Numbered from the stretch's first letter, positions 458 through 32,927 are shown. The stretch: 64,000 bases of DNA from Halorarum halobium (GCF_032116555.1 NZ_CP134949.1:2728001-2792000); one strand, 5' to 3'. Notes: a model not told the origin generated them from the sequence alone. Numbers and translations are program-made.

Positions 458-913
458 GTGCATCTTGAACAAGAATCGGTCCCTGATCTTACTGAGTCTG
501 GTAAGAGAACACTATTCGTAGGAAAGGACAACCCGATCCGAATCAGCACCGGGCATCGCCTCCTCCACCATGATGGGAAATGTAGCCGTCCACACGGCCA
601 CAACTATGAGATCTCGGTTGAGGTCACCGGATCTCTCACTCAAGATGGCTGGGTTGTAGACAAAGGAGATATTACCTCAGTAATAGATGACTGGGACCAC
701 CGCTTCCTCCTCGAGAAGGACGACCCGCTCATCGACGCCTTCGAACAGAGCGGCGACGGTGATTCACTCGTCGTTCTTGAACACCCACCGACCGCGGAAG
801 TGATGGGGCTCGTCTTGGAACAAAAACTCCTCGAGACACTCCCAGAGTCACTCTCAGACATCTCAGTGACGGTGCGGGAGACATCAGAGCTCTGTGCGGG
901 GGCGACGCACTGA
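458..913 (+). CDS. queD: 6-carboxy-5,6,7,8-tetrahydropterin synthase
   Basis: GHRL..HDGKCSRPHGHNY and PTAE motifs; first gene of a coupled queD-E-folE-C operon. Confidence 0.93.
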   Translation: MHLEQESVPDLTESGKRTLFVGKDNPIRISTGHRLLHHDGKCSRPHGHNYEISVEVTGSLTQDGWVVDKGDITSVIDDWDHRFLLEKDDPLIDAFEQSGDGDSLVVLEHPPTAEVMGLVLEQKLLETLPESLSDISVTVRETSELCAGATH

Positions 914-1686
914 TGCCAGTCAGTTCGACAGCTGATGAGCAGCCAACGGACGATGTCGATGGCGCGGCGCTGCCGGTCAACGAGCTCTTCTACTCGCTCC
1001 AGGGCGAGGGCAAACTCACCGGGACACCGTCGGTGTTCGTCCGAACGAGTGGCTGTAACCTCCGATGTTGGTTCTGTGACTCCTACCACACCTCATGGGA
1101 ACCGACCCACGCTACCATAAGCGTCGACGACATCGTCAAGGAGGTCCAGTCACACGACGACGCCGACCACGTCGTCCTCACTGGTGGCGAACCGCTCATC
1201 CATGACGATTCGGTCACCCTCCTGAAACACCTTGATGATCTCGGGTACCACACCACCGTCGAAACCAACGGCACCATCTACCGCGACGCCCCCATCGATC
1301 TGGCGAGTATCAGTCCGAAACTCGCCACCAGCACACCCACCACCGAGAAAGACCCCAAGGGCGATGGCGAGTGGGTGGACCGCCATGAGGACCGTCGTAT
1401 CGACCTCAACACGCTGAGCGCGCTCGTCGACGACTACGGTGCACAACTCAAGTTCGTCGTCACTGGCCACGACGATCTGCCCGAGATCGAATCCCTCCTC
1501 GCCGACGTCCGCTCGAAAGCGGCGAGTCACATCCCTGACTCCGACGTGTTGTTGATGCCGGAGGGAACGACTCGGGACGAACTCGACGCTCGCCGGAACG
1601 AGGTCGCCGACCTCGCGATGGAGTACGGCTACCGATACACGCCCCGCTTGCACGTCGACTTGTGGAACGACGCTCCCGAAACGTAA
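913..1686 (+). CDS. queE: 7-carboxy-7-deazaguanine synthase (radical SAM)
   Basis: ELFYSLQGEG, CNLRCWFCD (CxxxCxxC), LTGGEP, VETNGT, PRLHV; TGATG overlap with queD. Confidence 0.95.
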   Translation: MPVSSTADEQPTDDVDGAALPVNELFYSLQGEGKLTGTPSVFVRTSGCNLRCWFCDSYHTSWEPTHATISVDDIVKEVQSHDDADHVVLTGGEPLIHDDSVTLLKHLDDLGYHTTVETNGTIYRDAPIDLASISPKLATSTPTTEKDPKGDGEWVDRHEDRRIDLNTLSALVDDYGAQLKFVVTGHDDLPEIESLLADVRSKAASHIPDSDVLLMPEGTTRDELDARRNEVADLAMEYGYRYTPRLHVDLWNDAPET

Positions 1687-1687
1687 T

Positions 1688-2296
1688 ATGACGAGTACGC
1701 ATTCCCAATTCGCAACTGATGAGGTGGAATCAGACATCGACTACGAGAAGGCCCAGCGCGGCGTTCGCCTCCTGTTAGAGGCTGTCGGCGAGGACCCGGA
1801 CAGTGACGCGCTCGCGGAGACCTGCCAGCGGCGCGTTCCGGACACATTCGCGACACTCACTGAAGGTCAACGGGAGGCCGCGAAGCCGACGATGCGGACC
1901 TTCGACGCCGAGACAACCGACCTCGTCGTGAAAACCGGCATTCCCGTATACTCGCTGTGTGAACACCACTTGCTGCCGTTCTTTGGAACAGTCCATCTCG
2001 CGTATCAGCCGACAGACGAGGTAGTAGGGCTCTCGAAGCTGACTCGGTACGTTCGCTGGCAGTCACGCCAACTCACAATGCAGGAACGGCTGACGAACGA
2101 CATTGCGTCGGGGCTCAAAGAAGAACTCAACGCAGACACTGTTCTCGTCGAAGTGAACGCAACGCACCTCTGTGAGGCGATGCGTGGCGTCGAAACGGAA
2201 AGTACGACCACCACGAGAGCGACAGCCGGCGAACCGACCGCGGCCGAACGTGAGCGGTTCCAGGCAGCGATCAAGGGTACGGAGGGGCAGCGATGA
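1688..2296 (+). CDS. folE: GTP cyclohydrolase I (FolE type)
   Basis: SLCEHHLLPFFG, VVGLSKL.R, QERLT, HLC..MRGV motifs. Confidence 0.93.
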   Translation: MTSTHSQFATDEVESDIDYEKAQRGVRLLLEAVGEDPDSDALAETCQRRVPDTFATLTEGQREAAKPTMRTFDAETTDLVVKTGIPVYSLCEHHLLPFFGTVHLAYQPTDEVVGLSKLTRYVRWQSRQLTMQERLTNDIASGLKEELNADTVLVEVNATHLCEAMRGVETESTTTTRATAGEPTAAERERFQAAIKGTEGQR

Positions 2297-2988
2297 GTGA
2301 CCAGCGAGCAGTTATCTTGGCTTCTGGGGGGATGGATAGCGCGACGGCTGCCGCTGTCGCGCAGGATACCGGCTACGAGTTGTACATGCTGCACACGTCC
2401 TACGGCCAGCAGACCGAGAGTAAAGAGTACGACTGTGCAAAGGCTCAGGCTAAGACCGTCGGCGCCGCTGATTTCCTTCACCTGACAACGGATCATCTCT
2501 CGAAAATCGGTGCGTCGAGTCTTACCGACGATGAGATGGACGTTGAGGAGGCGGACCTCGAAAGTGACGAAATTCCGTCAAGCTACGTGCCGTTCCGGAA
2601 CGCGAACCTGCTGTCGATGGCAACCTCGTACGCGGAAGCCAACGACTGTGCGGCTGTGTTCATCGGTGCGCACAGCGAGGACTTCTCGGGGTATCCGGAC
2701 TGCCGGCCGGAATTCTTCGAGGCATTCCAGCAGGTCGTCGACGTCGGCACGAAACCGGAGACGGAGATCAGCGTCGAAGCGCCGTTCGTCGAGTTGTCGA
2801 AGACGGACATCGCCGAGCGCGGTCTCGAACTCGAGGTCCCCTACGAGCACACTTGGAGTTGCTACCGGGACGAGGCACCAGCGTGTGGCACGTGTGACGC
2901 GTGTGCGTTCCGCCTCCAGGCGTTCCAGAATCTCGGCGCGCGCGATCCGATCGAATACGCCGAGCGCCCGGACTATACCGAATCATAG
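2293..2988 (+). CDS. queC: 7-cyano-7-deazaguanine (preQ0) synthase
   Basis: SGGMDS PP-loop, YVPFRN, YPDCRPEF, TWSCY...CGTCDAC Zn site; ATGA overlap with folE. Confidence 0.96.
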   Translation: MSDQRAVILASGGMDSATAAAVAQDTGYELYMLHTSYGQQTESKEYDCAKAQAKTVGAADFLHLTTDHLSKIGASSLTDDEMDVEEADLESDEIPSSYVPFRNANLLSMATSYAEANDCAAVFIGAHSEDFSGYPDCRPEFFEAFQQVVDVGTKPETEISVEAPFVELSKTDIAERGLELEVPYEHTWSCYRDEAPACGTCDACAFRLQAFQNLGARDPIEYAERPDYTES

Positions 2989-3426
2989 ACGCCGCTGAGC
3001 CGATATATCCATGGTTAACCTGGTCTGCGTTAATTCTTCTCGACGCGGGGGCTCACGAAGAGGAGGTCCGATGCTGGAGACACCGAACCCAGAGTACCTG
3101 TTGCAGACAGCAATTTGAGTATCATCCAACTGTTCTAGCCTGCGAATTCCTATGGGGGTTTCACCTATTCGCCTAATCGGTCAACTAAGGTGGTCATGGC
3201 CAGTCCATACATTACTACAACCGGTAACACCCACATCAACCGATCAATGGGTTAGCACTAACTGACGAGGCGCTAAACAGGACAGTGACCAAAATACTAT
3301 TAGATTATACCCAGGATGGTGAAGCTAACATACTGCTAATGGTGGAAGAAATTCATTCACAGAGGGGCGGCGGGATACATTCAATATGATTAAACTATTT
3401 TGTGACCTGGCAGAGGGGGAGGACTG

Positions 3427-5322
3427 ATGATGGGCCTGGATCTTGACATACCTGACCAAAGAAACTCGTGGGGGACTCTAATAACATATACTACACAAAA
3501 GGAGAAGGAGAAAGTGATTGAATATTTAGGAGAGGAAATAGACAACCTACAGCGCCGAAATATTGGGGATATAGAAGATTTTGACCCCGCAATTGGCGTT
3601 GTGAATTGTGTTGATATTTCTGATAAGAGTGAAATTGTTCTGTCCGAACCTAAGGCAGGAAAGCAGGTAATGGGCTGGGTCAAAACCTACAAAACAGTTC
3701 TCCTCTGTAAGACCTGGCAATGGAAACTCCTCCAAACTCGAGACGGAAGATGGACTAGTCACCTGAACTCAATCCACCATATCTCCGACCACTCACCAAT
3801 TGAGAAGTCCGCACAACACCTCCTCAAAGAAGAAAATATATCGAAAAAGCAAAGCCGACTAGCTATTCACGAATACCTCCAACAAAGGGATCTCTTCACC
3901 GAGTTCCTTGATGAAGCTGGAATTAACCCTAACCGGCTTCAATCTATTATTGACCGAAAAGGGCTTTGGAATCTAAGCGACTCAGAGAAAGCACTCTTAC
4001 TTCGTCCAAACAAAGAACTCCTTCGCTACATAGCCGCTCAAGAGCTAAGAGAACGACAAGGAGGTCGGTTCGCCCGACAAGACTTCGTCAATCTCTTCGG
4101 CGAAATCCCCCGCCAAATCCAATCTAACAGCCAAAGATTCGAAGATATTCTTGAAGAAATGACTATTGAAGAAGGCGATATAGAGGAATTCAGTACAATT
4201 CAGGTTCTAGCAGGCATACTATGTCTCGATACCTTTGAGAACCAGTTGGAGCAAGCCATACGCGATAACCTTGCAAGGGAACCGAGTGACGTCCTTAATA
4301 ACATCGAAGAAGTAGACCGAAGCCAATTCCTGGAACGTTCAAGCTATATCGCCGAGTTTCTGGAGTCAGACCCCACAAGAAGCATCTTCTCAGCACTACT
4401 CACTGCAGTTAATCTAGATGGGATTAGTGGTGGGGATCCGTTCTTAGATATCCTAAAAAGATACCAGATGGAAGTCACGTCCAGAGATAAGGCCTTAGTG
4501 ACGAGACTTCTAGTCGAGAAAATTATTAGTGGGGACTACTCCTCTTCAAAAAACCACAGCGTGATAGCGGACTTCTTAGATGAAGATGGACCGAAAATAG
4601 TTCTCCTATTAGATGGTCTCCCACTCGCCACCCATGAAACGGCAGGATTCCTGTCTGAAAGGAAAACGGACGAGCGATGGGAAATTCAGCAGGCAATCGC
4701 CCCAATCCCGTCAGTAACGGAGATGTTTCGATCTTCCCTCAGCAGCGAATTAGACTTTGACGACTTAGGTGGATTTACTGATGGCGAAGATGGACTAGCA
4801 GGACTTGATTTAGATGCATTTCTCGGAGATGAAAAAGAGGAGGAACTCTTCGAAATGCTTCAGAATGGTGATTCAGTAATCATATACAACGCCGACATCG
4901 ATCAGGGTGCACGCTACCCTACAGATATTCATCGGAAGATAGACGCTCACTTGAGAGAAAATATCCCAGAATTTATACGAAAATACGGGGACCACGCTGA
5001 TATCTTAATCACATCAGATCACGGAATGGTCGAAACGCTTGAGTCGGAAGCTATTCCACGACCCACAGAAGCGAATCAAAGGGGAATGAGTCACTGTCGT
5101 GGAACATTTGTAGACGACGTCGATGAAATAAGGGGGGAACTCTCAGATGACACGGTAAGTTATATTGAAGTGGGATTACCAGACAGTGATGAGAATTGTG
5201 TGATGCTAAATCCTAACAACCCTAACGCGAAGTTTGGGACTCAAAGCTCCGACCTTTGGATTCACGGCGGAGTTTCTATAGAGGAGTCTGTTGTTCCTGT
5301 CGCAATTTGGAGGGGTGTATGA
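3427..5322 (+). CDS. PglZ-like alkaline-phosphatase-superfamily protein
   Basis: C-terminal half has LLLDGL, PIPSVT, ITSDHG and HGGVSIEESVVPV, the ordered PglZ-domain motif set; N-terminal half unrecognised. Confidence 0.8.
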   Translation: MMGLDLDIPDQRNSWGTLITYTTQKEKEKVIEYLGEEIDNLQRRNIGDIEDFDPAIGVVNCVDISDKSEIVLSEPKAGKQVMGWVKTYKTVLLCKTWQWKLLQTRDGRWTSHLNSIHHISDHSPIEKSAQHLLKEENISKKQSRLAIHEYLQQRDLFTEFLDEAGINPNRLQSIIDRKGLWNLSDSEKALLLRPNKELLRYIAAQELRERQGGRFARQDFVNLFGEIPRQIQSNSQRFEDILEEMTIEEGDIEEFSTIQVLAGILCLDTFENQLEQAIRDNLAREPSDVLNNIEEVDRSQFLERSSYIAEFLESDPTRSIFSALLTAVNLDGISGGDPFLDILKRYQMEVTSRDKALVTRLLVEKIISGDYSSSKNHSVIADFLDEDGPKIVLLLDGLPLATHETAGFLSERKTDERWEIQQAIAPIPSVTEMFRSSLSSELDFDDLGGFTDGEDGLAGLDLDAFLGDEKEEELFEMLQNGDSVIIYNADIDQGARYPTDIHRKIDAHLRENIPEFIRKYGDHADILITSDHGMVETLESEAIPRPTEANQRGMSHCRGTFVDDVDEIRGELSDDTVSYIEVGLPDSDENCVMLNPNNPNAKFGTQSSDLWIHGGVSIEESVVPVAIWRGV

Positions 5323-5323
5323 G

Positions 5324-6319
5324 ATGTCTTTAAACAAACCTATGCCGAAAGGAGGTTATCGCACTATACTTGAAATCGTGAATATCCTAGGAGGTGAGGG
5401 AAGTCAATCCGTTAGAGACCTAGTATCAGAGCTTGACCAATTTGGCTACAGAATAGTTCAGGATGACAGTGGAGAAGACCATAGTCCTGCCCTCAGCCCA
5501 GGAGGACACACCTACTCTGAGATCACTCAGCTCCTGAACTTTGTAGAAGCTAAAGGTGATGACCCTCTAGATACTGAACTCAGTTTAACAGAAGAATCAG
5601 AGAACAACTTCGGCACCAAGACAAGCGGCAGAAAAGTCTACGATATTTTATCTACCGATAAATTAGATGATGAGACAAAAAGAGGAGCTGTTAGCGCATT
5701 AATACTCTCTCTTCTCTGCGAAGCCGATATTGATACCTCAAATGTGACTATTCCCAACGCATTCCGGACCTTCCTAACTAAAGTATGGGAACAAAAGGAT
5801 AAGTCTACAGGTCGTTATCAAACAAACTGGAGAAAAGACAACACGTACTTCAAAGATATCCTAACCGATCCTGAAATATCTGAGGACTGGAACGAAGAAA
5901 AGCTTCGCCACTGCGCAACAAGAGCTATTGACCTCGGTGTTTGCCGGCGCTCAGAAAGAGGCGGCAGCTCAGACCTCATATGCCCTGTACTTGTTGAAGA
6001 CATCTTCCAAGCGAGCGTGTTCTACATGAACCATCACTACCGAAAAGACCTGGCCGATACAACTCCAAATATACGGCAATTTTACAGTGATCTTAGCAAA
6101 TGGTATCCGATAGCCAAGGAGTTCTTCGAACAGAATGTCCTCTATGATGGCATTCTACACCAGAATACCAAAATATCTGATAAAACCTACCCTGTGCTTC
6201 ATGACCTGCTCAACCGGAATAACAATGAGACAAACAATTATCAAGTGAGATGGTTCGAAGGAGAGGATAGCTGGGATGAAAACGTCCGCTTCGCTGAATT
6301 CGAATTTGGAGTGATGTAA
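5324..6319 (+). CDS. Hypothetical protein (331 aa), possibly tandem winged-helix
   Basis: ATG 1 nt after the PglZ stop with GGAGGGGTG upstream (preferred over TTG 5291); no catalytic motif recognised. Confidence 0.75.
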   Translation: MSLNKPMPKGGYRTILEIVNILGGEGSQSVRDLVSELDQFGYRIVQDDSGEDHSPALSPGGHTYSEITQLLNFVEAKGDDPLDTELSLTEESENNFGTKTSGRKVYDILSTDKLDDETKRGAVSALILSLLCEADIDTSNVTIPNAFRTFLTKVWEQKDKSTGRYQTNWRKDNTYFKDILTDPEISEDWNEEKLRHCATRAIDLGVCRRSERGGSSDLICPVLVEDIFQASVFYMNHHYRKDLADTTPNIRQFYSDLSKWYPIAKEFFEQNVLYDGILHQNTKISDKTYPVLHDLLNRNNNETNNYQVRWFEGEDSWDENVRFAEFEFGVM

Positions 6320-6321
6320 AA

Positions 6322-9300
6322 ATGGCTAAAAAACTGGAATCTGAAGCAGAAGAGGCACTTGAGTCGGAGTTGGGCATCAACCCACAACGATTCGATGTCG
6401 TATTCTCGCAGGTCTGGGACTCGGACGAAGATCCCGAGGATCGAGTCCACATCGATACAGAAGTCGAATCAGAAGTTCTCCGCCTCGTAGATGACTGGGC
6501 AGATCAAATCCACGATTCTGCAGGTAATCCCGGTGGCTCAGATGACGGCCTATTTCTCGTGATCGAAGGAGCTCAAGCTACCGGGAAGACCACGATGACC
6601 CGGTATACTCGGAACCAGTTAGACCCCACTGAAAATCCAGATCAATCGAATATCCCAATGATCATCCCGGTCTGGGATTCAACTGATCCAAATCCAACCT
6701 CCTTCAAATACAGAGGCCTCCTACAGAATGAGGGTCGCAGAGTCTTTGAGGAGTTAGATGTTCCTGACATAGACGACAAGATAGAACTTCTCAACGGAAT
6801 GGACGCAGAACTATCTGATGAAGAGATCTCAAAGATAGGGGAGCAACACGGAGCTAACGCAGAACAAGTCAAAGGAATTCTAGGAGAAGCAGGATTCGGA
6901 GGGGGAGAATACGAACCCAAGGAAGTTGTAAGCCAACTCGCCAGCGAAGGCTATCTCTTCCTATTCATCTTCGACGAGATGGTCTCTGAGAATGACGCAG
7001 AAAAAGCCAAATCTGTACTAAAATGGTTTAAAGACCACCTCTACCCATACGTTGGCCTTGTACTCTTCTCCCATCCAGACGTCTCTAGCGCCATTAAGAG
7101 CGAAATGCAGGACCAAGCTACCAGGAGAAATATTGACAGAACTCTCAACATCGCTGGGGAAACTTACGACATCAAAGAGGATATTGTCATCAACATCCGG
7201 GGCAAGCAGCACCGGATAATAGATATCGAAAAACTGCTCCAAGACTACTTTTCGGATGTATATATAGAGGAGGACCATCCCGATTACGGGCCTCTGGACG
7301 AGGCAAACCTCGAATGGATGAAACGGCTCTTAGCAGCAGGTGGTCTAATAGGGAACCTCATCGACGGCCTAAATACTGCTATCGAGCGATTCGCTCAGGA
7401 CAGAGCAGACGGTAATGACGAAAAAGAGATCGGGGCATATCTATTCGACGAATGCAGCCGGAAGATGAGTCACGTTCAAATCAAGCAACGGTTTGAGGGT
7501 AACTCAGATCTAGATCCGGATGAAGAAACAGAAGCAGTTTGGAGGGCAAAGGAACTGATCACGCAATCTACAGGCTTAGAGGAAGTGGAAGACGAGATTC
7601 AAAATGAGTTAGAACAAGCCCGTGTCCTGATTGAGGACTCCGACAGCGGAGTGCTCGATCTGAACCCATATTTGATGAACTATGAAGAGTCTGACTACTC
7701 TCGGTCGAGAGAAACCACTCCACGTACAACAGAGGAACCAGAAGGTCAGTTAGCAGCCTACCGGGATACAGTACAAAGCTTCAGTGATGACAAGGCCAGT
7801 GACCGCGGAACACTACGGAGAAATGTTGACATAGGTCTTTCAACTCTACTGGAAAGAGTTAATTCCCAGCAGGCGAACATTTCCCAGTCGTCTTCTCTCG
7901 CTCTTCCAGGCGGCAACAACCCTGAATCCGATTTCTTAGAACTAATAGGTTCCTCAACTACAGGACGTGCTGAGAAAATCGAAATAAGCGACGGAAACCT
8001 TTCCGAATACGACTATCGATTCCTCGCCACAACCCTCTTCTCAGATGACTCACTGAATGATCCAGAAATCCGCGACGATATCCAAGAGTGGTTTGACGGA
8101 GACAACGGATTACTCATCGTCACTAACAAAGATCCAGAGGATATCTCAAAACCGGGTTGGTTTGATGACACTATCGATAAACAGCGGTGGAGAGAAAACG
8201 AATACACGTGGGCAAATATAACCCAGATAATCCACGTTGACCGGCTAAGAGACTTATTAGGCCTTTACCGTCATCTCCAAGAGGAAGACTTCGAGAACGA
8301 TAGCGAAGTCTTAGCAGAAATCAGAAGACTTTCTGACCAGTCACAATTCCCGGAACTCCCTGATTTGGAGGATTTAGTAACGGGGCTTTACGAGGACTCC
8401 TCAGAAGCGGTCCGCAACATCCACAATAGCATCTACGAAAAGTATGATGGACCGACTATAGACGAAGCAGAAGCCTTCTCGGAAATCCTTGATGAGGTCA
8501 AGGATCGAGGCTTCATTTCAGATGAAGTTCTGGATAAGCTTCGGGAAGATCATGGAGTTGAAATAGAATCTCTAATCAAAAAAGGCGCTATAAAACGGTT
8601 CGAAACAGAAGATGATCGGACAGTCGTCTATTTGAAGCAAGAGTTCGGTGGAGCATCTAAGATTGGAAGAGTCAGTGACAAAAGAGACCTCTTCCCGGTG
8701 GGGCCAGAAATCTTCGATAAACTCGAAGAATTCCACGGGATGGAATCCGGCCGTGTCATGCGGGATGACGACGAAATCAGTAACAGGCTGGATAACCTGG
8801 AAAAGAAGAGCAGCATAGTCGACTTCTTCCTCTATAACGAGGATAAACTGGCAGACATCAAAAGCGAGATCAATGACTCCGATGTCAAAATCTTCTCTGA
8901 CGTCTTAGACAAGATTGCAGAAGCAAAACAGACTGACGAGGAAGACTTTAAACTCGTAAGAGAAAAATTTGAAGCCGATCAAGACCTCTGGTCAAAAATA
9001 CAAGACTTAGATGTCGATGATGACATCTCACCAATTCACCGAGAGCTCTTCTACGCTAAACTCCCAGAACAACCGCCAAATTGGGCCACAGACTACATAG
9101 ACGACGACAGAGACTATCCTACTCTAATCTACGATCTTCACAAAACAATTCAGCAAATACTGGAAGAACTCGATGACGTGGATGAGGAAGTCTCTGAGGG
9201 ATTCGAAGACGAAAGCAGCGACCTGGAAGAGCTACGTTCCGACTTAGAAGAATTCGCGGATATTGATTCAAGCTCGGAAGATGATGTTGAACTCAATGAT

Positions 9301-10086
9301 TCGAACTCAGAGACTCTATCAGAACTGTCCAAAGAAGATCTCGAGGACTTCGACTTCGAGTCCTTCATCTCGGACATTGCTGAGAATGAATCCAAAAGAA
9401 GCAATCTGAGCAGTGCGACCGGACTACTAACTAGAGCGGATCGAACCCGTAACACCTTCGTTGAGACCCTAGACATAGAATCTCTAAAGGACATAGACCA
9501 CGACAAAGCTTCAGACCACACCGATGTCGGAAAGCAGATCGTCCAACGACTATTAGACGACGACGTCCTCTTCGACGACGACAGCGATGAACCAGAGATA
9601 GTCCTTCAAGACCTTCAGGACTTCTGTGAGAATACCAGGAAGCTAATCCAGGACTCCTCAAAATTACAAGAGTTGACAGAAAATGCAGAAGAGGAGCAGG
9701 AGAAGGTAGAATCGGTTCCCGGAGATGATATAGAGGATAAGCTGGAGCATCTCGAAGAAAAGGTCGAGGACATAGATAACGCTGAGAGGTACCTCAAACT
9801 CAAAGAAGAACACTGTGAGGTCTGTAAAAGCGATTGGAAGGATCTATCGCTGGAACGGAAAGAAGAAATTGAAGATGAGCTGGAACGGATGGAAGAGGAT
9901 TATCCGGATGTCGACTTCTCCTTAGACTCTATTGAATCAGAAAAGGACGCCGCTGAAGACAAAAAAGAGGAAGCAGACGACGTAGAAGAAGAGTTGGAAA
10001 AGATAGAGAGGAAGAAGGGTCAAATCGATCTCAGCGAATACACCAGTGAGTTAGGAAACCTCCAGGAGAAGTATGCCTCAGATTAA
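6322..10086 (+). CDS. Large P-loop ATPase with C-terminal coiled coil and CxxC
   Basis: Walker A LVIEGAQATGKTT, Walker B LFLFIFDEM; E/K/L-rich heptad-like tail flanking HCEVCK. Confidence 0.85.
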   Translation: MAKKLESEAEEALESELGINPQRFDVVFSQVWDSDEDPEDRVHIDTEVESEVLRLVDDWADQIHDSAGNPGGSDDGLFLVIEGAQATGKTTMTRYTRNQLDPTENPDQSNIPMIIPVWDSTDPNPTSFKYRGLLQNEGRRVFEELDVPDIDDKIELLNGMDAELSDEEISKIGEQHGANAEQVKGILGEAGFGGGEYEPKEVVSQLASEGYLFLFIFDEMVSENDAEKAKSVLKWFKDHLYPYVGLVLFSHPDVSSAIKSEMQDQATRRNIDRTLNIAGETYDIKEDIVINIRGKQHRIIDIEKLLQDYFSDVYIEEDHPDYGPLDEANLEWMKRLLAAGGLIGNLIDGLNTAIERFAQDRADGNDEKEIGAYLFDECSRKMSHVQIKQRFEGNSDLDPDEETEAVWRAKELITQSTGLEEVEDEIQNELEQARVLIEDSDSGVLDLNPYLMNYEESDYSRSRETTPRTTEEPEGQLAAYRDTVQSFSDDKASDRGTLRRNVDIGLSTLLERVNSQQANISQSSSLALPGGNNPESDFLELIGSSTTGRAEKIEISDGNLSEYDYRFLATTLFSDDSLNDPEIRDDIQEWFDGDNGLLIVTNKDPEDISKPGWFDDTIDKQRWRENEYTWANITQIIHVDRLRDLLGLYRHLQEEDFENDSEVLAEIRRLSDQSQFPELPDLEDLVTGLYEDSSEAVRNIHNSIYEKYDGPTIDEAEAFSEILDEVKDRGFISDEVLDKLREDHGVEIESLIKKGAIKRFETEDDRTVVYLKQEFGGASKIGRVSDKRDLFPVGPEIFDKLEEFHGMESGRVMRDDDEISNRLDNLEKKSSIVDFFLYNEDKLADIKSEINDSDVKIFSDVLDKIAEAKQTDEEDFKLVREKFEADQDLWSKIQDLDVDDDISPIHRELFYAKLPEQPPNWATDYIDDDRDYPTLIYDLHKTIQQILEELDDVDEEVSEGFEDESSDLEELRSDLEEFADIDSSSEDDVELNDSNSETLSELSKEDLEDFDFESFISDIAENESKRSNLSSATGLLTRADRTRNTFVETLDIESLKDIDHDKASDHTDVGKQIVQRLLDDDVLFDDDSDEPEIVLQDLQDFCENTRKLIQDSSKLQELTENAEEEQEKVESVPGDDIEDKLEHLEEKVEDIDNAERYLKLKEEHCEVCKSDWKDLSLERKEEIEDELERMEEDYPDVDFSLDSIESEKDAAEDKKEEADDVEEELEKIERKKGQIDLSEYTSELGNLQEKYASD

Positions 10087-10098
10087 GCCTGAGGAGAA

Positions 10099-13000
10099 GT
10101 GGTCTCAATGAATATCCTAGATATCAAAAACAGGTCTGTTGATCACCTCACCGAGACGATTTGGTGGAACAAAGGCCTGACTAAACTCAACGAAGATACG
10201 ATTTCGAACTACAACGAGTTTATCGATAACCTGGTTCAGGTCAAGGGGCCTTATCTCGAAAAAGTCCAACCACCTAAGTTTTCGAATCAACCTTGGCCCT
10301 ACTACTGTGAAAACCACGACATCCAACATGAGGTACAGTCAGCGATCCGCGACGTAGTTTTCGGTGGAGGTGACGGTCGTCTTTACCGACACCAAGGAAG
10401 AGCAGTAGGATCTATCTTGGACTCAGTCCACGGAGACACAGAAGACGACGTCATCATAACAGTTCCGACTGCCACAGGGAAAACAGAGTGCTTCGTAATA
10501 CCCGCTCTCGACACCGCTATCAGAAATCAACAAGAGCGAGAATTCCCTCGACAAATCAAATCACTCATCATCTATCCTCAGAAGGCACTCGAAACCGACC
10601 AACTTGACCGCCTGGTGAAATACACATACGAAATCAATAATCAACGGCCCAGCACTGAAGGCGTCAAAATAGGCATCTATGACGGAGACACCCCAAGAGG
10701 GCAATATAAAATCTCCAGCGGCCAAAACGTCCGAGGATTAGAATGCCCTGAATGCGACCAGAAATTAGGCTGGGATCAAGACTCTGGAACGATGGTCTGC
10801 ACAAACACTGAGGAACATCGCAGGCCAGTTGAAATCGACTTCTTGGAGCTCACCCGAGACGATATTGAAGAAAACGGGGCGGACATCCTACTCACGAATC
10901 CCGAGGCGCTTGAGTTCCGATTCTTTTCCTCTGATTCACGAGATTTAGTCAACTCTGATCTCTTGGATCTCGTGGTTTTCGACGAGGCCCACGTCTGGAA
11001 CGGGAACGGAGGTAAAGCAATCTCGCAGTTCATCAGCCGTTTAAGAAATCGTTACGGCTCCACAATGGTCTTGGCCAGTGCTACCATTGCCAACCCCAAG
11101 GAATTCGCTTCAGACCTTCTCAACCGTACTGAAACAGGTATAGATCATATTGACTTCGAAGCAGGGAATGTGGATACAAGACATCGAAGCACCAGCGAAT
11201 TCACCTCCTTAGATTTCCTATCCCCTCAGAACGGTTTCCGGATGCTGAGAGAAATCAGAGAAGGGAATCCAGACGTATCTGACCTAAAATCACTTGCGGA
11301 AGCTTCAGAAAAAGAGGTCCAGTCTACACTGACTCTTCTCCAGAGAATCGGTTATTTGGATAGTCAACAGGAGGCTACAGAACACGCAGAAGAACTCTTA
11401 GACGAGATAGAGAAACGAAATACAATAGAGGATAATGAACTCCAATCCGTATTCAACGAAGTTCTAAGATTCAGAGAACAGATAGCGGACAGCTTAGTCA
11501 ACGAAGTTCCCCAGGTTGCAGAGATATTCGACCAATTTGGCGAAGAAAATTTCATCGAAGTAGAAAGACTACTGGAGAGCATATTCACCGATCAGATTCA
11601 AGAAAACCAGTTTGAGACGCTCACTAATCTACTCGAATGGTGTAAATTAGGTGGAGTCCTCTACGACCGCTATCACTACTTCATCAAGCCGTATGTGAAC
11701 TTTTTCTACTGTCCTGACTGCCAAAGCATGTTCACGGAACGAGTTTCGGAGGGAGGAAGAGATCACCATTCTCTCCGAGAAGTCAAATTCTGCTCCAACT
11801 GCCACACACCATATTACGTAGACAGAGGCGAAGAATATGCAATCGGAGAACCTTGCTCCTGCTCCAGGCGCAGCTATACTGAGCCACCAATGCAGACAAC
11901 CACTTTCCTATCCTACTTCCTATCTAAGCTCGGTAGAGATATGAAGGAATTCGGAGCAGGCAAAGTCCTAGTCTTCTCTAATCGGAGAGGAGACGCAGAA
12001 GGAGTCGGCTCTCTAATGATGAAACTCGACTACTCGTTGGAAAGCGAGAGAATGATGGTATCATTATTAGAAGAGCAGGATGACGACCAATTCTACTCCG
12101 TCTCAAATCTCCGAGAAGACCTATACGAAGAGCTGAAAGAATACTACGTAAAGCAACCTTACACATATTTGGAGGACGAAACGCTCTCGCAAGGCCTCTT
12201 CTCGCAGCTAGGTGCTCTAGCAAATCCTCTCGACAAAGGCAACCATCGGAAATTGTGGGATGCAGGGATTCTCAGTGTTAGACCCGAGTCAGAAAACGAT
12301 GAAATCAACCTCATAGCGAACGAGATCGTGAAAATTCTGGCGTTCAAACCCCATACTGATCTGGATCAAAGTAATAGCATCAAAATCGATTCTCTAAAAT
12401 CTAAACTCTCAAACTCGGTGCCGACCTATTTCGATTCAGCACCTGATCTTGACGCGAAACTTGACGAAGCACTCTCCGTCTTGGAGCAAGCAGACATTAT
12501 TAGCCGAGAAAGAGAGCGGTCTAGCGATGAAGTCGTAACTATCCTCACCCTGAGAAGGAACTTCCTCGAGCTAGATGTTCAAAAAGAAGCCTGTGTTTGC
12601 GAATTTTGTTATTCAGGATGGCCATTCTGGGATAGAAGTTACTGTCCAGACTGTGGCGAGCACTTAGTCGAAGTGGACCGGGATTCATACGATAAAGTCG
12701 AATTCGACCAGGAAGAGTACTCACTAGACCACTGGGGAAATGTGGTCCTCGGTCACGGAGTTGATCCTCTCGTAAGTGCAGTGCATAAGGCCGGTATAAA
12801 GACCGATACTCGGAATAAAATCGAAGAAGGGTTCGGCGCAAATCCGCCCAAGATCAACGTAGTATCAGCTACAAACACCCTGGAGCTCGGCATAGACATA
12901 GGAACTCTCGATTGCATCGCCGGGCTGGGTATTCCACCTACAAAGACAAGCTATGTCCAGCGAGCTGGTCGTACTGGACGTAGCTTAGACCAGTCCTCAA

Positions 13001-13947
13001 TGGTGTTCACGGTTGCTCGTCCTCACAACGCCGTGGATAACTTCTATTTCGAAGATATAGAAAGTAGATTCCTCAATGCACCTTCCAAACCGGTACAGAT
13101 CAACCACCTCAATTACGATATCCTTAAGACACAGGTGATGTCCGAGGTACTCACATATCTGAATCTGAACGATCTCGACTATGGACGATTTGAGCGGTTC
13201 AAAACGGGCCAGGATATTGACGATGTGATTAATGAAGTCTACGACGGTGTAGAAGCATTACTGGATACTGTCGATGAAAATCAAGACTCTATCAAGGAGC
13301 ACTTGGAAGGTGCGTTTAAATCGGGTGAAGAGGACCTTGAACAAGCATTAGAAGATCTGTTTGAGAGCCCGTCTGAAGTAAAACAGCGTGTGCTTCGCCG
13401 ACTTTTCAAATTCTACACAACCTTCCGGGCATTGGAAAAGGAAACTGGCCAGGGTGCTCAGGGTCTCAGAAGGCGGAGAGTCATCCAGGAAGAAATTCTT
13501 CAGGAACTGGAGAGGGAAGTTGGATACCTGCCAATGCTTCTGTCCAGTGCCGGAATGATCAGCCAATACCGTTCCACCGAGGATTCAGTAGCGCTCTTCC
13601 GAGAAAAGGAAAGTGAGGAAAACGGTCAAGTCCATCTCAGCTACGAATCCAAGAGCGTCTCACAAGCATTGAGAGAATCATATCCAGAAGCAATGGACAC
13701 CTATGGAGGAGTCGACTACGAGGTTGTGAGTGCACAAGTTAGTCGAGATGAAATTTTCTCCACCAGCGTTTGCACAAACCAATTATGCACTCTTCCCTAC
13801 AATGAATACCCTGCCTTAGAAGTCTGCCCGCTCTGTGGAGATGACTTAGAGGAAATCAGCGTTCACGAATACTTGGGAGCGGTGCTCAAATCATCCAGAT
13901 CCAGAAAGAGAACACGGCCGCTGATAATGCGAGGTGTTGACTTTTGA
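10099..13947 (+). CDS. SF2 DEAH-box helicase with Zn fingers (DrmA/DpdJ/DruE/MrfA-like group)
   Basis: LYRHQ, PTATGKT, IYPQKAL, YDGDT, TNPE, DEAH, SAT, ATNTLELGIDIG, QRAGRTGR; several CxxC pairs; start may be ATG 10108. Confidence 0.92.
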   Translation: MVSMNILDIKNRSVDHLTETIWWNKGLTKLNEDTISNYNEFIDNLVQVKGPYLEKVQPPKFSNQPWPYYCENHDIQHEVQSAIRDVVFGGGDGRLYRHQGRAVGSILDSVHGDTEDDVIITVPTATGKTECFVIPALDTAIRNQQEREFPRQIKSLIIYPQKALETDQLDRLVKYTYEINNQRPSTEGVKIGIYDGDTPRGQYKISSGQNVRGLECPECDQKLGWDQDSGTMVCTNTEEHRRPVEIDFLELTRDDIEENGADILLTNPEALEFRFFSSDSRDLVNSDLLDLVVFDEAHVWNGNGGKAISQFISRLRNRYGSTMVLASATIANPKEFASDLLNRTETGIDHIDFEAGNVDTRHRSTSEFTSLDFLSPQNGFRMLREIREGNPDVSDLKSLAEASEKEVQSTLTLLQRIGYLDSQQEATEHAEELLDEIEKRNTIEDNELQSVFNEVLRFREQIADSLVNEVPQVAEIFDQFGEENFIEVERLLESIFTDQIQENQFETLTNLLEWCKLGGVLYDRYHYFIKPYVNFFYCPDCQSMFTERVSEGGRDHHSLREVKFCSNCHTPYYVDRGEEYAIGEPCSCSRRSYTEPPMQTTTFLSYFLSKLGRDMKEFGAGKVLVFSNRRGDAEGVGSLMMKLDYSLESERMMVSLLEEQDDDQFYSVSNLREDLYEELKEYYVKQPYTYLEDETLSQGLFSQLGALANPLDKGNHRKLWDAGILSVRPESENDEINLIANEIVKILAFKPHTDLDQSNSIKIDSLKSKLSNSVPTYFDSAPDLDAKLDEALSVLEQADIISRERERSSDEVVTILTLRRNFLELDVQKEACVCEFCYSGWPFWDRSYCPDCGEHLVEVDRDSYDKVEFDQEEYSLDHWGNVVLGHGVDPLVSAVHKAGIKTDTRNKIEEGFGANPPKINVVSATNTLELGIDIGTLDCIAGLGIPPTKTSYVQRAGRTGRSLDQSSMVFTVARPHNAVDNFYFEDIESRFLNAPSKPVQINHLNYDILKTQVMSEVLTYLNLNDLDYGRFERFKTGQDIDDVINEVYDGVEALLDTVDENQDSIKEHLEGAFKSGEEDLEQALEDLFESPSEVKQRVLRRLFKFYTTFRALEKETGQGAQGLRRRRVIQEEILQELEREVGYLPMLLSSAGMISQYRSTEDSVALFREKESEENGQVHLSYESKSVSQALRESYPEAMDTYGGVDYEVVSAQVSRDEIFSTSVCTNQLCTLPYNEYPALEVCPLCGDDLEEISVHEYLGAVLKSSRSRKRTRPLIMRGVDF

Positions 13948-14624
13948 CTGAGTTCTCCGAGAACTTCGAAGAAGCACTTGACTTGGACGAAGACGAGATA
14001 GAAGGAGGTCTAACACGAGACGCCGAAACACTGGATGAGACATACTTCAAGGATCTTCACATCCGCTTCGTATCTAACCTGAAAGTTCGAAGTACCGTGC
14101 CCAAAGTCGAAATTAGCTATTTCTCCAACAGCAACGTCGAAGACGCAAAAGGAGATATCCTGAAATTTGAAGATGGGGAAGTGAAATGGGATCACGCTAT
14201 TCCCGGTCATCAACATCCAACCGATGGGATCGTCTTTCTACATAGAATCGAAGATCTCAGATCGAAGCTCGGATCGAATGATAACAGGAAGGCAATTACA
14301 GCTGCATACTCGGCCGGATATGGACTTAGATCTATAATTTCTAGAAATCTCGGTGTCGACAGCTTGGATATCCAGTGTTCTGTAACAATGTCTCAACGGT
14401 TTATTCAGCTAATTGTCTATGACGCCGACGTAGGCGGAGCAGGATTATCCCACGCAGTCTATCAGGACTTAGAAGAGTTCCTATGGGAAACGAGAACCGC
14501 TCTGGATGATTGTGTCTGCCCGGATTTCTGTGAACAATGTCTCCTCCTACCACGAACACCCACACATATCATTGAAGAGGGGCTTCTGAATCGGTTTGAT
14601 GGCCTAAAGTTCCTCTCTGACTGA
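13944..14624 (+). CDS. DUF1998 (MrfA-type C-terminal Zn-binding domain) protein
   Basis: IVYDADVGGAGLS ... CVCPDFCEQCLL; TTG start overlaps the helicase stop, GAGGTG 7 nt upstream. Confidence 0.82.
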   Translation: MTEFSENFEEALDLDEDEIEGGLTRDAETLDETYFKDLHIRFVSNLKVRSTVPKVEISYFSNSNVEDAKGDILKFEDGEVKWDHAIPGHQHPTDGIVFLHRIEDLRSKLGSNDNRKAITAAYSAGYGLRSIISRNLGVDSLDIQCSVTMSQRFIQLIVYDADVGGAGLSHAVYQDLEEFLWETRTALDDCVCPDFCEQCLLLPRTPTHIIEEGLLNRFDGLKFLSD

Positions 14625-15135
14625 CTCGATACAAAGCTTATTCTCGATGTCGTGTTGTTTGAGCGTCATGACACTATCTGGTAGCATGTTCCGGGCTGGA
14701 TTCCCCGAAAAAATACGATCTCTCAGACACCCTGATTCTCGTCAATCAATTCGGCTACCGGACTTTCATCTCTGGACTAAAACTTAGTGGTCGAGTCTAC
14801 TATACCGACTGAACCCTCCTTGAGAAGTAGTTTCTTTCGCATCCACAAAATGCGCATCACCTGTTTCCATACTTCGCAGGTGGGTAGTCGGTCAAGCGTC
14901 CGTGAGTAGCTTGATAGTTTATGTATTACTCTCTAACCATCAGTGACCGTACCAAGCCCTCGATGAACAAGCGATGCAGAGCTGCTGTGTTCCTGGAAGT
15001 GAGTAGACTACGAAAACAGAAATCAAGTGACTGCGTTCAGTCGAAACGGCTCTCAAAAGTCATAACAACGTCTTTCCGGAAACAACCCGGTCAGGCTTTT
15101 ATCTCTTGACCGAAAAATCAGTCTATCAGAATCAA

Positions 15136-16911: not shown

Positions 16912-17853
16912 TCAGTGATCGTTGTCACCGAGCGCACGCAGTTCGTCCCATCGTGCGCGAATCGTGACTGGGGTCACGTCCGCAACCTCGGCGAGGTCGG
17001 GCTGCGTGACCCGCTCGCACCGTTCTCGAGCGGCTGTATACAGTCAGGCCGCCACGAGGCCAGTCGGAGGACACCTGTTCGCGAGTTGTTCCTCGATAGC
17101 TTTTGCTGCGATTGCCTCCGCCCGGTGCCGTGTCCCGACCGAGAGCCCGAGTGCTGATGCGAATCGGGGAACGTAGGCTGCGGGCGGCGTCGGCATGGCC
17201 GGGAGTCCGAGTTCGCGATTGAGGACGCCGTAGGCGTGCTCGACGCGCTCGGCGGTGGCCTTCGCGACGCCACCAACCTCCGGAACTGTGCGTGGAAGGA
17301 CGTTACAGCGACACACCGCGTAGACGCTCGCGGCGGCGACCGCTTCGATGGAACGACCAGGAAGGAGGTCCTCGCTGGATGCACTGCGATAGAGCGCACA
17401 GGCCTGATCACGAATGCTCTCCGGGAGGTCAAGGGCGCTCGCGAGACGGCGCGTCTCGGCCAGGCCGTGTGCGAGATTCCGTTCGGCTTTCGAGCGCCAG
17501 CGACCGCGGTTGTGCTCCCGTCGGAGTCCGCCCAACTGGCAGCGTTTCTGGCCGGGGAGGGTGTTCCCGTTGCCGTCGGTTTTGCGACCGATTTCGGTCG
17601 ACAGGCCTCGATCGTAGCGGGTTGGGGTTAACGGCGCGCCGGTTCGCTCGGGATCTCTCTCGTCATCATCGAAGGTTGGTCATTCCGGACCATGGTCGAT
17701 CGGCTGTGAGTCGAGTACCAGCCCTCAGTCCTCACAGACCGTTTCCACGGCGTTCGTTGTGACGTGACCGTCGTACTCGGCGCACTGGTTCGCGCTTGCG
17801 TCAGCCTATACGTCTTCGTCGAACGTTCTCTCGTAGATGTCTCTGATTGCCAT
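16912..17853 (-). pseudogene. tfb: Transcription initiation factor IIB pseudogene
   Basis: AERNLAHGL.E.RRLASALDLP, LLPGRSIEAVAAASVY, then TQPDLAEVADVTPVTIR in another frame; early stop after MAIRDIYERTFDEDV and frameshifts. Confidence 0.88.
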
Positions 17854-32200: not shown

Positions 32201-32927
32201 GCTCATGTTCCTCCAGGCGGTCTACAACGCCCAGCAACTGCGGTATGATCCACTAGAATACGACCTTCTCACCGATTCGATGCTCCGCTTACAGGAGTAC
32301 ATCGCCATTGGCTCCGAGTCGATTCAGGATCTGCTCGATGCCGACCTCCTTCGCCACGACACGGACCACCCCCATCGCATGTACACGGTGACGCCAGATG
32401 GGCGCTCGGTCATCGGCGAGAGCTATCGTCAGGGCGTCGATTACGGCCACGGTGCGGGCGATCTCGAGGAGTCGAGCCAGCACGTCTTTGCCGTCGAGAT
32501 CGGCCGGCGCTATCTCGAACGAGCCTTCGTGGCTGATCCAGACTCGCCGGTCGTCGAGGTCGTCCCCTACTACGATCTGGATGAGAACCGTCGGCTCGAC
32601 ATCGCAGGGCTCGACGACGAGGGGGACGTCGTCGCCGCCGTCGAAGCAGAACGGGTGAATCACGACATCAAGCGTGCGGTCCCCGAGGATTTCGATAAGA
32701 TGGCCGACTGTGGGGTGGAAGACGCCATCTGGGTGGTGATGAAACAGTCGGACGGCCACGACGTCCTCCAGGCGTTGAACGATCCGCCCGAGGGCGAGCC
32801 CCGCGTCGAGAAGACGTATGCGAAGACGACCCCGCCCCAGCAGTTCACTATCGAGACGCCAGGGTTGACGGCGATGTATCCGGCTGGGTGGCTCCGTGAT
32901 CGGCTTGCGGATGGTGAGCTGCCATGA
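29238..32927 (+). CDS. HerA/FtsK-superfamily ATPase, VirB4/type IV coupling-protein-like
   Basis: IFAKTGGGKS Walker A, VIEPKGD, YVEEAASV Walker B, LAQSRGF...LAMQFPAQL; C-terminal CxxC and RRLDIAG..AVEAE nuclease-like segment. Confidence 0.8.
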   Translation: MATTPTTDHPPPSRQYLELTPTDAALNPTTVVSQFGRLCSLTRPTTAEEIPWYSRLWNRIASGPAPLTFEWLLVTDGDPDTPVRYFIGVDDDAVFDQLEQLCRALVPNEYELRRVDFHPAEIAPETTSAEDTPDAEPSEEREQLDSGDTLSDTDREPAEPARPANDHYHAIEFYGHAARRDDWMTQLTSFTSFRDDADTRLPLAAVLEALARLETPAVYQALLQPFPDWTSAATGRLGDLEQGLDTPAMRALDGIIPTDEPDTHRRSRDHPEQGRMDAIDAKDSRRSFVCTARIVARRRETNAEGTPPVAFDALENALETVSHTWYRIDARVRNGSKARGVRTDLLDRTVHPPNYDTLTAKLPWTQNTSRGIVVDPDEAPVFCLVDGGSLTTTGARALAPTPGERTALSRPPNRLLARYRGSGLPLGTPLTQDGTPDGEPLVLPPALQSLHVGIFAKTGGGKSVSTVNGVLQNHAATDGADIVIEPKGDGMAIDYLRAHYAEYGTLDNVLYFDCAKVLPAFGFFDIRDELDAGISRTTAVEDVTDHYVEILTQIMGRDRFEQAVRSPDVIRYMVKALFDPINGQDAFSHRELHGAVRKMHERQSVPPVSDGDLERMLGGVVANRAQTFDEIMQGVANRMEKIPVDQRLARIFNHVPEGSERDDDADDTDEPAAIDPHFDLADHLNENQVLIFDTGGLRSQAQRVLTLVVLSNLWTALRRRTQRGEDDALVNVYVEEAASVAVSDLLTELLAQSRGFNCSMMLAMQFPAQLRETDAGAYDEVLNNISTFVTGNVPIDRQLAARLATAEMDAQAVGNRLRALRRGQWLVSLPAAFGVDEPRPFTVESLPPPPGHPAGPPAEQGVDGFSEALESVRERTRSDVGLTLGEPSVAAHDESAITDDEDAPQLRVDTALPHTNRMPPTVEYAPEMNSLECTGCGNRYDPSIEGMKRAIACCSSLDAVDSDDVPICAVNLKLTPDERHVSDWSEHQLMFLQAVYNAQQLRYDPLEYDLLTDSMLRLQEYIAIGSESIQDLLDADLLRHDTDHPHRMYTVTPDGRSVIGESYRQGVDYGHGAGDLEESSQHVFAVEIGRRYLERAFVADPDSPVVEVVPYYDLDENRRLDIAGLDDEGDVVAAVEAERVNHDIKRAVPEDFDKMADCGVEDAIWVVMKQSDGHDVLQALNDPPEGEPRVEKTYAKTTPPQQFTIETPGLTAMYPAGWLRDRLADGELP

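Follow-up and report, generated by a model that had tools for sequence, protein, structure and literature searches.

A PglZ-containing five-gene cassette as the putative restriction arm of a Dpd-like 7-deazaguanine island in Halorarum halobium

Results

A PglZ cassette beside a Dpd-like modification island

We analyzed a 64,000-nt stretch of the Halorarum halobium chromosome (NZ_CP134949.1; G000:C1:2728001-2792000 in our genome set), hereafter the window, with positions counted from its first letter. Here a preQ0 (7-deazaguanine) synthesis operon, queD-queE-folE-queC, is followed after 438 bp, on the same strand, by a cassette of five genes encoding a PglZ-domain protein, a multi-winged-helix protein, a large AAA+ ATPase, a DEAH-box helicase of the YprA family, and a zinc-binding MZB/DUF1998 module. 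The five genes probably make up the effector (restriction) arm of a BRIGADE-type, Dpd-like haloarchaeal island, in which a 7-deazaguanine would serve as the self mark. Judged from gene content, the most fitting description of the locus is a BRIGADE/Dpd-type island with a rare and undescribed PglZ-AAA+-winged-helix-YprA effector arm. This assignment is supported because the DpdA beside the cassette appears genuine, all 10 cassettes found are associated with deazaguanine genes, a second clade pairs the cassette with another modification module, some genomes carry a dedicated queC, and the DpdA core is modular. It is supported further because there is no nearby DNA methyltransferase, the catalytic-type residues of PglZ are invariant, and the motifs of the helicase and the AAA+ ATPase are intact.

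Within the cassette, the genes are separated by 1, 2, and 12 nt, with one 4-nt overlap, and a GGAGG-like motif lies ahead of each start. The order of the nine genes, their spacing, and the Shine-Dalgarno-like motifs had been given in an initial annotation made from the window sequence, and all are borne out here. Its identification of the que and folE genes, the DEAH helicase, and DUF1998 is likewise upheld by family matches.

The 20 kb to the left of the window (L008) was examined with Pfam and PADLOC. A genome-wide search for TGT genes found an ArcTGT and an ArcS-like gene at 0.65 Mb and, 3.5 kb outside the left window edge, a third gene of the TGT family. An operon in this left flank, divergent from queD, comprises a dpdA-DUF6884 fusion, a second TGT gene, a gene for a 298-aa protein, and a BrxD-like ATPase gene. 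The fusion encodes 967 aa (G000:C1:2724697-2727597) and lies 0.4 kb from the window. Its N-terminal 600 residues match DpdA (NF041059, 281.2 bits against a cut-off of 200; PADLOC DpdA, 2.2e-75; solved DpdA 7ui4_A, 1.3e-40). By our own count from the alignment, D89, D124, and D337 align with Asp95, Asp130, and Asp256 of 7ui4, which are essential or invariant according to Gedara et al. (PMC10164549), and the CxCxxC...H zinc site is retained. By these sequence measures, the DpdA is genuine. The C-terminal domain scores just above threshold for DUF6884 (30.7 bits; cut-off 30), weakly matches PADLOC DpdC (1.9e-6), and carries CxxxK and LSAxxG-like motifs. DUF6884 is a distant relative of YaaA/PF03883 according to the Pfam authors (PMC11701544), and PF03883 is named as the DpdC family in PMC12839542.

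The second TGT (TGT2; 344 aa) lacks a PUA domain and has the ArcTGT catalytic domain as its closest solved relative (2.2e-19). The 298-aa protein belongs to no family and returned weak Protein Atlas leads, with a DpdG lead at 0.77. The fourth protein is a 385-aa ATPase of the BrxD/BrxC_BrxD type. In Pfam and PADLOC scans, no open reading frame (ORF) examined in the window or in the 20 kb beside it matched ParB, DndB, or DpdB; the BrxD-like ATPase is found instead. The initial annotation had proposed looking leftward for a TGT/DpdA paralogue, which is indeed there with a second TGT beside it; of the DpdB/DndB-like or DpdC genes it named for the same region, only a DpdC-like candidate was recovered, as the weakly matching DUF6884 fusion. 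A bDpdA homologue in Haloarcula vallismortis was noted by Hutinet et al. (PMC6884629). A weak NucS_C match lies about 10 kb further left of the Dpd operon.

All cassettes found lie beside deazaguanine genes

We then examined the distribution of the cassette across 401 Halobacteria genomes and metagenome contigs, a set in which the sample of cassettes is small and its members related. The cassette is present in 4 of the 401 genomes (G000, G155, G306, and G313, by strong PglZ-like matches), and a profile scan found it on six further metagenome contigs. A profile scan of genome contigs identified the loci of G155, G306, and G313 as a Halobacteriales metagenome-assembled genome, Natronosalvus hydrolyticus, and Halorubrum alkaliphilum, respectively; this needed an alignment-based profile, as a single-sequence search of the genome contigs with the PglZ-like protein found nothing. 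A further 14 weak matches (E 2e-6 to 5e-4) cover the last 250 PglZ-like residues within 810-833-aa frames. No relatives were found on viral contigs with the AAA+ profile or the DpdA sequence, the latter being a single-sequence scan that reaches close relatives only.

The five-gene order is identical at all 10 loci, and a deazaguanine-pathway gene (TGT, DpdA, or que) or the associated BrxD-like gene occurs in the available flank of every one. The co-occurrence count proposed in the initial annotation thus favors deazaguanine genes over methyltransferases, none of which was found in any scanned flank of the 10 loci. By helicase identity, the loci fall into about seven lineages, with at least five arrangements. 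At the H. halobium locus, as at L034 and L035, the Dpd operon is followed by the que operon and then the cassette. At L040 (G155), the cassette and TGT2 diverge across 390 bp, and farther out follow the 298-aa gene, the BrxD-like gene, dpdA, folE, queD, queE, and queC. Elsewhere, the BrxD-like gene lies immediately upstream of the cassette (L036), dpdA immediately downstream (L037), or a queC fragment downstream (L039), while at L041 the cassette sits behind queC.

L041, together with L042 and L038, forms a second clade (28-50% identity) with the same cassette and a different deazaguanine module. This module (L042:8-5353, L041:357-4051) comprises an ArcS-like TGT+DUF5591 protein (634-660 aa), a standalone DUF6884 protein, a 415-aa TGT, and a GHKL (HATPase_c_3) ATPase, and may write a different derivative, for example deoxyarchaeosine. 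In addition, two of the four cassette-bearing genomes, G155 and G306, have a dedicated second queC beside the cassette besides another copy elsewhere.

A modular DpdA core with exchangeable arms

DpdA(-DUF6884) was matched in 67 of the 401 genomes at E ≤ 1e-10, 52 of them at E ≤ 1e-200. DpdA-DUF6884 genes 90-96% identical to that of H. halobium are present in genomes from two or more other families of the class (G131, G240, G204, G059, G371, G349, G321, and G376), and the sequences point to recent horizontal spread of this block. In all 12 loci sampled, DpdA, TGT2, the 298-aa gene, and the BrxD-like gene lie within 20 kb; DUF6884 is either fused to DpdA or an adjacent gene, DpdA stands apart from the other three in 3 of the 12, and a divergent queD-E-folE-C operon is present in 5.

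The arm beside this core varies between loci. The commonest, at L089, L090, L091, L096, and L097, combines a DEAH-MZB helicase (1816-1819 aa) and a PLD-domain protein (658-723 aa). Others consist of a UvrD-PD-(D/E)xK fusion with a DpdH-like protein (L092, L094, L095, and L099), a superfamily 1 (SF1) helicase-PD-(D/E)xK protein (L093 and L096), or an AAA+ coiled-coil protein (L088). Because the common DpdA core has interchangeable arms, mostly a YprA helicase plus a PLD nuclease, we group the H. halobium island with the BRIGADE systems. By domain content, PglZ stands in the cassette where sibling arms have a PLD or PD-(D/E)xK nuclease. Compared by hhalign with sibling-arm proteins, the profiles of the AAA+ ATPase and the 331-aa winged-helix protein gave P-loop matches only or nothing, and the similarity of the ATPase to the DpdH-like protein is limited to the P-loop. 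The PLD-arm protein occurs in 30 of the 401 genomes, 29 of which also have DpdA (67 of 401 overall), and in 26 of those 29 the two share a contig, 0.2-57 kb apart; these are counts only, related genomes not being independent.

The cassette is a discrete block at a shared junction

Nucleotide homology places a junction between the Dpd-que block and the cassette at 3189/3190. G131, which belongs to another family, contains a counterpart of the 10.6-kb segment from -7382 to 3189 at 92.8% nucleotide identity, and this homology ends at 3189, precisely where the cassette is joined. The cassette block, 3190-14699 by its homology limits, is 93.7% identical to the metagenome locus L035, whose homology begins at 3190. 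The difference in base composition between the two operons that had been noticed in the initial annotation is confirmed: the G+C fraction is 0.462 in the cassette, 0.596 in the que operon, and 0.682 in the chromosome. Direct or inverted repeats of at least 10 nt were not found at the cassette borders.

These features bear on the main rival explanation, namely that the cassette is an autonomous, modification-independent Druantia- or BREX-like machine lodged at an exchange hotspot beside Dpd-que blocks. It would fit the discrete block limits, the other cassette found at the same junction in G131, the contrast between 0.462 and the 0.53-0.60 of the cassette's neighbors (0.596 and 0.531), the low-GC, mobile-looking region with ArdC-like, TFIIB-paralogue, and OLD-nuclease genes, and the high mobility of a block whose DpdA copies are so alike across families. 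We nevertheless consider it unlikely. All 10 cassettes sit beside deazaguanine genes, in varied positions and with two non-orthologous modification modules, and a single hotspot is insufficient to explain this because the relative positions differ and the modules are not orthologous. Moreover, no cassette away from deazaguanine genes was found in the 401 genomes or in the metagenome and genome contig scans, and the analogous PLD arm is nearly confined to DpdA-bearing genomes (29 of 30). A restriction arm coupled to the Dpd module therefore remains our preferred reading, with functional coupling inferred from this conserved but rearranged co-localization.

The cassette at the G131 junction (L088:2782-8152) has three genes, whose products are an AAA+ coiled-coil protein of 1136 aa and two further proteins of 255 and 388 aa. 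It has zero matches to defense models and may be a further undescribed arm. At L035, which is otherwise near-identical to the H. halobium locus, a 3.5-kb insert (L035:3319-6875) separates queC from the cassette and contains a queuosine-salvage family gene (PF10343, 1.9e-52), a 376-aa gene without assignment, and a duplicated queC 3ʹ end (window 2827-3189).

The que operon arrived with the island

The que operon lies on the plus strand. queD (458-913; 6-carboxytetrahydropterin synthase; PTPS, 1.1e-19) is a single tblastn locus in the genome. queE (913-1686; radical-SAM 7-carboxy-7-deazaguanine synthase; Radical_SAM, 2.2e-16) is the sole genomic copy, with QueE models as its top NCBIfam matches, all under their cut-offs. 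folE (1688-2296; GTP cyclohydrolase IA; GTP_cyclohydroI, 4.5e-53; NF006826, 172 bits against a cut-off of 162) stands between queE and queC (2293-2988; preQ0 synthase; QueC, 6.9e-76; TIGR00364, 191.5 bits against 150.3), the genome's only true QueC. All four genes are single-copy in H. halobium. The que operon must therefore also supply tRNA archaeosine, since it is the sole one in the genome and the ArcTGT and ArcS-like gene lie elsewhere.

This housekeeping duty is what would favor chance adjacency between an archaeosine preQ0 operon and an unrelated island; chance adjacency within a defense island, with the difference in base composition, was a caveat of the initial annotation. The composition contrast is real, and the cassette is a discrete block; chance alone does not agree with the comparative counts, above all the association conserved at 10 of 10 loci. 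The same-genus genome G381 has queD-E-C without folE, for which there is no match in the locus examined (L055, G381:C1:255001-275000). The flanks of these genes are syntenic, at 80-91% nucleotide identity, with C1:1.955-1.970 Mb of H. halobium, and at that syntenic native site (G000:C1:1959724-1961730, compared with L055) H. halobium has no que genes. The window's que operon is thus not the native one and travels with the Dpd genes. It arrived with the island, as the block that is 92.8% identical to one in another family includes both the que and the Dpd genes, and its G+C fraction of 0.596 departs from the chromosomal 0.682. We regard chance adjacency as very improbable. On gene content, the island-borne queD-E-folE-C is the genome's only preQ0 pathway, so that tRNA archaeosine is predicted to depend on the island.

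The five cassette proteins

The first cassette gene (3427-5322, plus strand, as are all five) encodes 631 aa with an alkaline-phosphatase-type PglZ domain at residues ~385-631, preceded by 380 uncharacterized N-terminal residues. The protein has no Pfam match of its own, while a precomputed PF08665 match is present in most of its relatives. The description of this protein as PglZ-like holds at the level of the domain only (PADLOC PglZ, 3.6e-7; family profile against the PorX PglZ domain in the Protein Data Bank [PDB], 8e-5), the NCBIfam model BREX_PglZ_3 giving 28.6 bits against a cut-off of 250. The family has 15 members. Residues D396, T431, S530-D531-H532-G533, H613-G614-G615, S617, E619, and E620 are invariant in all eight sequences aligned.

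The second gene (5324-6319) encodes 331 aa from its ATG; the ORF extends upstream to a TTG at 5291, and the Atlas record begins at residue 12. The protein has no sequence family, a blank PDB profile search, and no usable Protein Atlas match. Its AF2 model (predicted local distance difference test [pLDDT] 85.5; predicted template modeling score [pTM] 0.86) shows tandem winged helices and an SspB/BrxA-like fold. With VIA-align, SspB (6juf_B) was the top whole-chain match (Z 9.4, 236 residues aligned), and BrxA (7zge_A) followed at Z 7.3 over 178 of 199 residues; Foldseek returned nothing at E ≤ 1e-3. We propose the protein, on its modeled fold, as a candidate DNA-binding or recognition subunit.

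The large ATPase (6322-10086; 1254 aa) combines an ORC/Cdc6-type AAA+ region at residues 1-460 with a long helical tail, encoded by a gene of its own in the second clade. Walker A (GAQATGKT, residue 83) and Walker B (FIFDE, residue 215) motifs and the ORC/Cdc6 fold agree with its initial description as a large ATPase; a known sequence family was not recovered, with no family match in the domain and defense-model scans and no AAA+ match in the PDB profile search. A model of the first 1000 residues, built from 22 sequences (pLDDT 71.2), matched Orc2 (5e-4) and BrxC 9zdx_A (5.9e-3) in Foldseek, and Orc2/Cdc6 (Z ~12) and BrxC 9zll_A (Z 9.8, 352 residues aligned) in VIA-align. At the sequence level, the protein is an orphan: its family has 28 members among 5.8 billion proteins and five representatives, only its own kin, among 1.84 billion. 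Residues ~1100-1254 (window 9600-10086) contain a conserved H-C-x-V-C motif within a predicted coiled coil, and the only PDB lead for the tail is the Rad50 zinc hook, at a non-significant E of 0.82.

The fourth gene (10099-13947) encodes a 1282-aa DEAH-box superfamily 2 (SF2) helicase of the YprA (DruE/DpdJ/DrmA) family with DEAD and Helicase_C domains. A Cys-rich insert of ~530 aa separates its two RecA lobes, and the PTATGKT, DEAH, and QRAGRTGR motifs are intact. PADLOC matched it to DruE1 (1.3e-36), DpdJ (1.5e-34, N-terminus), and DrmA (8e-30); against the helicases of the sibling arms it has 25-33% identity, and it is the single YprA-like helicase at the locus, the nearest other tblastn matches being 1.3 Mb off. 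The last gene (13944-14624) encodes the 226-aa MZB/DUF1998 zinc-binding module (PF09369, 1.5e-10), with a CxCx3Cx2C cluster, and aligns to the C-terminus of DruE models.

Methyltransferases and surrounding genes

In agreement with the initial annotation, which also saw no PAPS reductase or cysteine desulfurase (no search was aimed at either here), no DNA methyltransferase was found among the scanned ORFs, a scan that within the window reached as far as 34 kb and took in 12 of the listed ORFs at 14.6-34 kb. Genome-wide, PF02384 and PF00145 have zero matches, and other matches are at distant sites only: PF01555 at C1:1.85 Mb, and PF07669 on contig C2 and at C1:0.45 Mb.

Several other genes surround the island. 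A 742-aa OLD-family protein (window 23327-25555, minus strand; AAA_15, 1.5e-31; OLD-like TOPRIM, 4.1e-15) is likely another defense gene in the same low-GC region. A 1229-aa ORF (window 29238-32927, plus strand) has a weak HerA/DUF87 match (8.8e-4) and is not in the cassette of other loci. The island is bordered by TFIIB paralogues or fragments and by a gene resembling ArdC-N (window 17044-17535, L008:7506-8441, and L008:5852-6904, all on the minus strand), which suggests an integrated mobile element. Between dpdA and queD lies an uncertain 223-aa ORF that crosses the left window edge, with its 3ʹ part at 2-349 on the minus strand; neither half matches any Pfam family, and the ORF is not conserved, the corresponding spacer being just 133 bp in L090.

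Comparison with known systems

BRIGADE, as described by Bell et al. (bioRxiv 10.1101/2025.09.15.676423), is a Dpd-like system of halophilic archaea only, in which a deazaguanine synthesis and insertion cluster is combined with a YprA-family helicase. It usually has two YprA helicases, PLD or PD-(D/E)xK nucleases, DpdG, and DpdHI/BrxC. The H. halobium locus shares the halophilic archaeal host, the 7-deazaguanine cluster adjoining a YprA-family helicase, and the proposed Dpd-like restriction-modification logic, and the sibling loci, with their PLD arm, DNA2-like SF1-PD-(D/E)xK arm, and Csa3-like regulator, fit the published description. It differs in having one YprA helicase, split from its DUF1998 module, in place of the usual two, in having no PLD or PD-(D/E)xK nuclease among the five cassette proteins or in the Dpd operon, and in having, instead, PglZ together with an ORC-like AAA+ ATPase that is an orphan and a protein of SspB/BrxA-like fold. 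The word PglZ is absent from the preprint's main text.

The island resembles bacterial Dpd (dpdA-K of Salmonella Montevideo; PMC10164549, PMC5699537) in its DpdA, which scores above the NCBI equivalog cut-off, in the preQ0 genes within the island, in a putatively DpdC-related domain, and in the DpdJ-like N-terminus of the helicase, which reaches 103.9 bits for DpdJ NF041067 against a cut-off of 800. Unlike bacterial Dpd as described, no DpdB was found, a fused DUF6884 replaces DpdC, there is an extra ArcTGT-like transglycosylase, DpdD-I and DpdK have no matches, and PglZ occurs instead of a PLD nuclease, there being no PLD domain in the cassette.

BRC (PMC12839542) comprises PglZ, DUF6079, a STAND NTPase, DUF4007, and a universal HerA/FtsK. 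GNAT is often present as well; a subset also has a TGT, whose proposed role is to introduce preQ0 as a DNA mark, and DpdC was not found by the authors. Both combine PglZ with an AAA+ ATPase of ORC/Cdc6 type and, at the level of fold, a tripartite winged-helix protein of the DUF4007/BrxA kind, and the BRC subset shares the TGT. Unlike BRC, the H. halobium locus has an SF2 YprA helicase with MZB and a full DpdA/DUF6884/que module. No HerA/FtsK (DUF87) match was found in the cassette or Dpd operon, the sole weak one being 15 kb away, and DUF6079 and DUF4007 gave no Pfam match even at an E value of 10, although in fold the ORC-like AAA+ ATPase and the tripartite winged-helix protein are broadly of those kinds. 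The words DUF1998, MrfA, Druantia, DISARM, and Halobacteria are absent from the main text of PMC12839542.

With BREX (types 1-6), the cassette shares a PglZ domain with intact metal and nucleophile motifs and, at the level of modeled fold only, an ORC/Cdc6 AAA+ region of the BrxC type and a BrxA-like protein. Unlike BREX, there are no PglX (or BrxP), BrxB, or BrxL matches at the locus and no PAPS reductase, at which no search was aimed; no sequence relationship links the AAA+ ATPase to BrxC, and PglZ falls far under the BREX cut-offs. The helicase and separate DUF1998 gene mirror DrmA and DrmB of DISARM, and the top PADLOC matches of the helicase are the DruE models of Druantia. Unlike both systems, the locus has no DrmC, DrmD, DrmM, DruA-D, or DruH, with DrmA models at 22 against a cut-off of 950, and, unlike DISARM, neither a PLD domain nor a methyltransferase. 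On these component tests, assignment of the locus to BREX, DISARM, Druantia, or BRC was rejected.

The initial annotation had called the locus a candidate new system and an archaeal BREX/Dpd hybrid. The first is too strong, as BRIGADE and BRC are already described; the locus is of the BRIGADE kind and falls short of a full match, its PglZ, AAA+, and winged-helix arm not having been found in the published main texts. Of the hybrid, the deazaguanine partnership is supported through DpdA and the 10 loci, and the BREX part is reduced to a PglZ domain and fold likeness. The helicase with DUF1998 does not count toward a hybrid, being of the YprA family already typical of Dpd, DISARM, and Druantia. 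In the main texts covered, we found no PglZ-Dpd arm described; a literature search for such a link turned up BRC, BRIGADE, and reviews, of which the HerA-centered BRC, joining PglZ with a TGT, comes closest.

Discussion

We can postulate how such an island would work. As annotated, FolE, QueD, QueE, and QueC can make preQ0. DpdA, aided by the BrxD-like ATPase in lieu of DpdB, would exchange guanines of the host DNA for preQ0, and the DUF6884 domain may convert the inserted preQ0 further. The cassette proteins would then form a surveillance machine, in which DNA binding and the sensing of absent marks fall to the winged-helix protein (SspB/BrxA-like) and the AAA+ ATPase (ORC-like), the split YprA helicase-MZB pair translocates on or unwinds the DNA, and PglZ acts as a phosphodiesterase or nuclease on unmarked incoming DNA.

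The direction of recognition could also be the opposite, with the cassette as a modification-dependent (type IV-like) arm against viral DNA carrying another 7-deazaguanine, such as halovirus dPreQ1, while the host derivative is tolerated. Such targets exist, HVTV-1 replacing about 30% of its G with dPreQ1 (PMC6884629), and winged-helix modules could read a modified base. Yet none of the known domains that read modified bases (EVE, SRA, or similar) turned up in the family scans, classical restriction-modification accounts more simply for an arm co-inherited with a writer from its own chemical class, and the sibling arms have ordinary PLD or PD-(D/E)xK nucleases, like bacterial Dpd. We judge this version improbable and prefer an arm directed at unmarked DNA.

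Several points weigh against that preference. What is said here of the DNA chemistry, the target, and the action of PglZ is prediction from gene content. A compositionally distinct block, with another cassette at the same junction in G131, would also be expected of a defense-island hotspot, and Druantia type III, a YprA-helicase system that has no modification gene, offers an analogy for an arm that could act by itself. Only modeled fold ties the AAA+ and winged-helix proteins to BREX, at middling Z values, which for the 331-aa protein indicate fold and not function. DUF6884 is no more than a putative equivalent of DpdC, and lesion binding or repair has been suggested for this domain (PMC11701544). 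Finally, the cassettes are few and related.

More tentatively, the locus might represent a BREX-type module rewired to 7-deazaguanine instead of N6-methyladenine and driven by a YprA helicase, with PglZ replacing the PLD nuclease, on an island that has captured its host's only preQ0 pathway; in this full form the idea is possible, though we would not yet lean on it. The system is rare and haloarchaeal, and haloarchaea are a group with genetic tools. If the reading is true, a natural nuclease swap has occurred within one system family, from PLD or PD-(D/E)xK to PglZ, which would bear on the role of PglZ in BREX, and the PglZ/AAA+ machinery would not be bound to methylation marks. The loss of the native que operon suggests, furthermore, a way for a defense island to become indispensable to its host.

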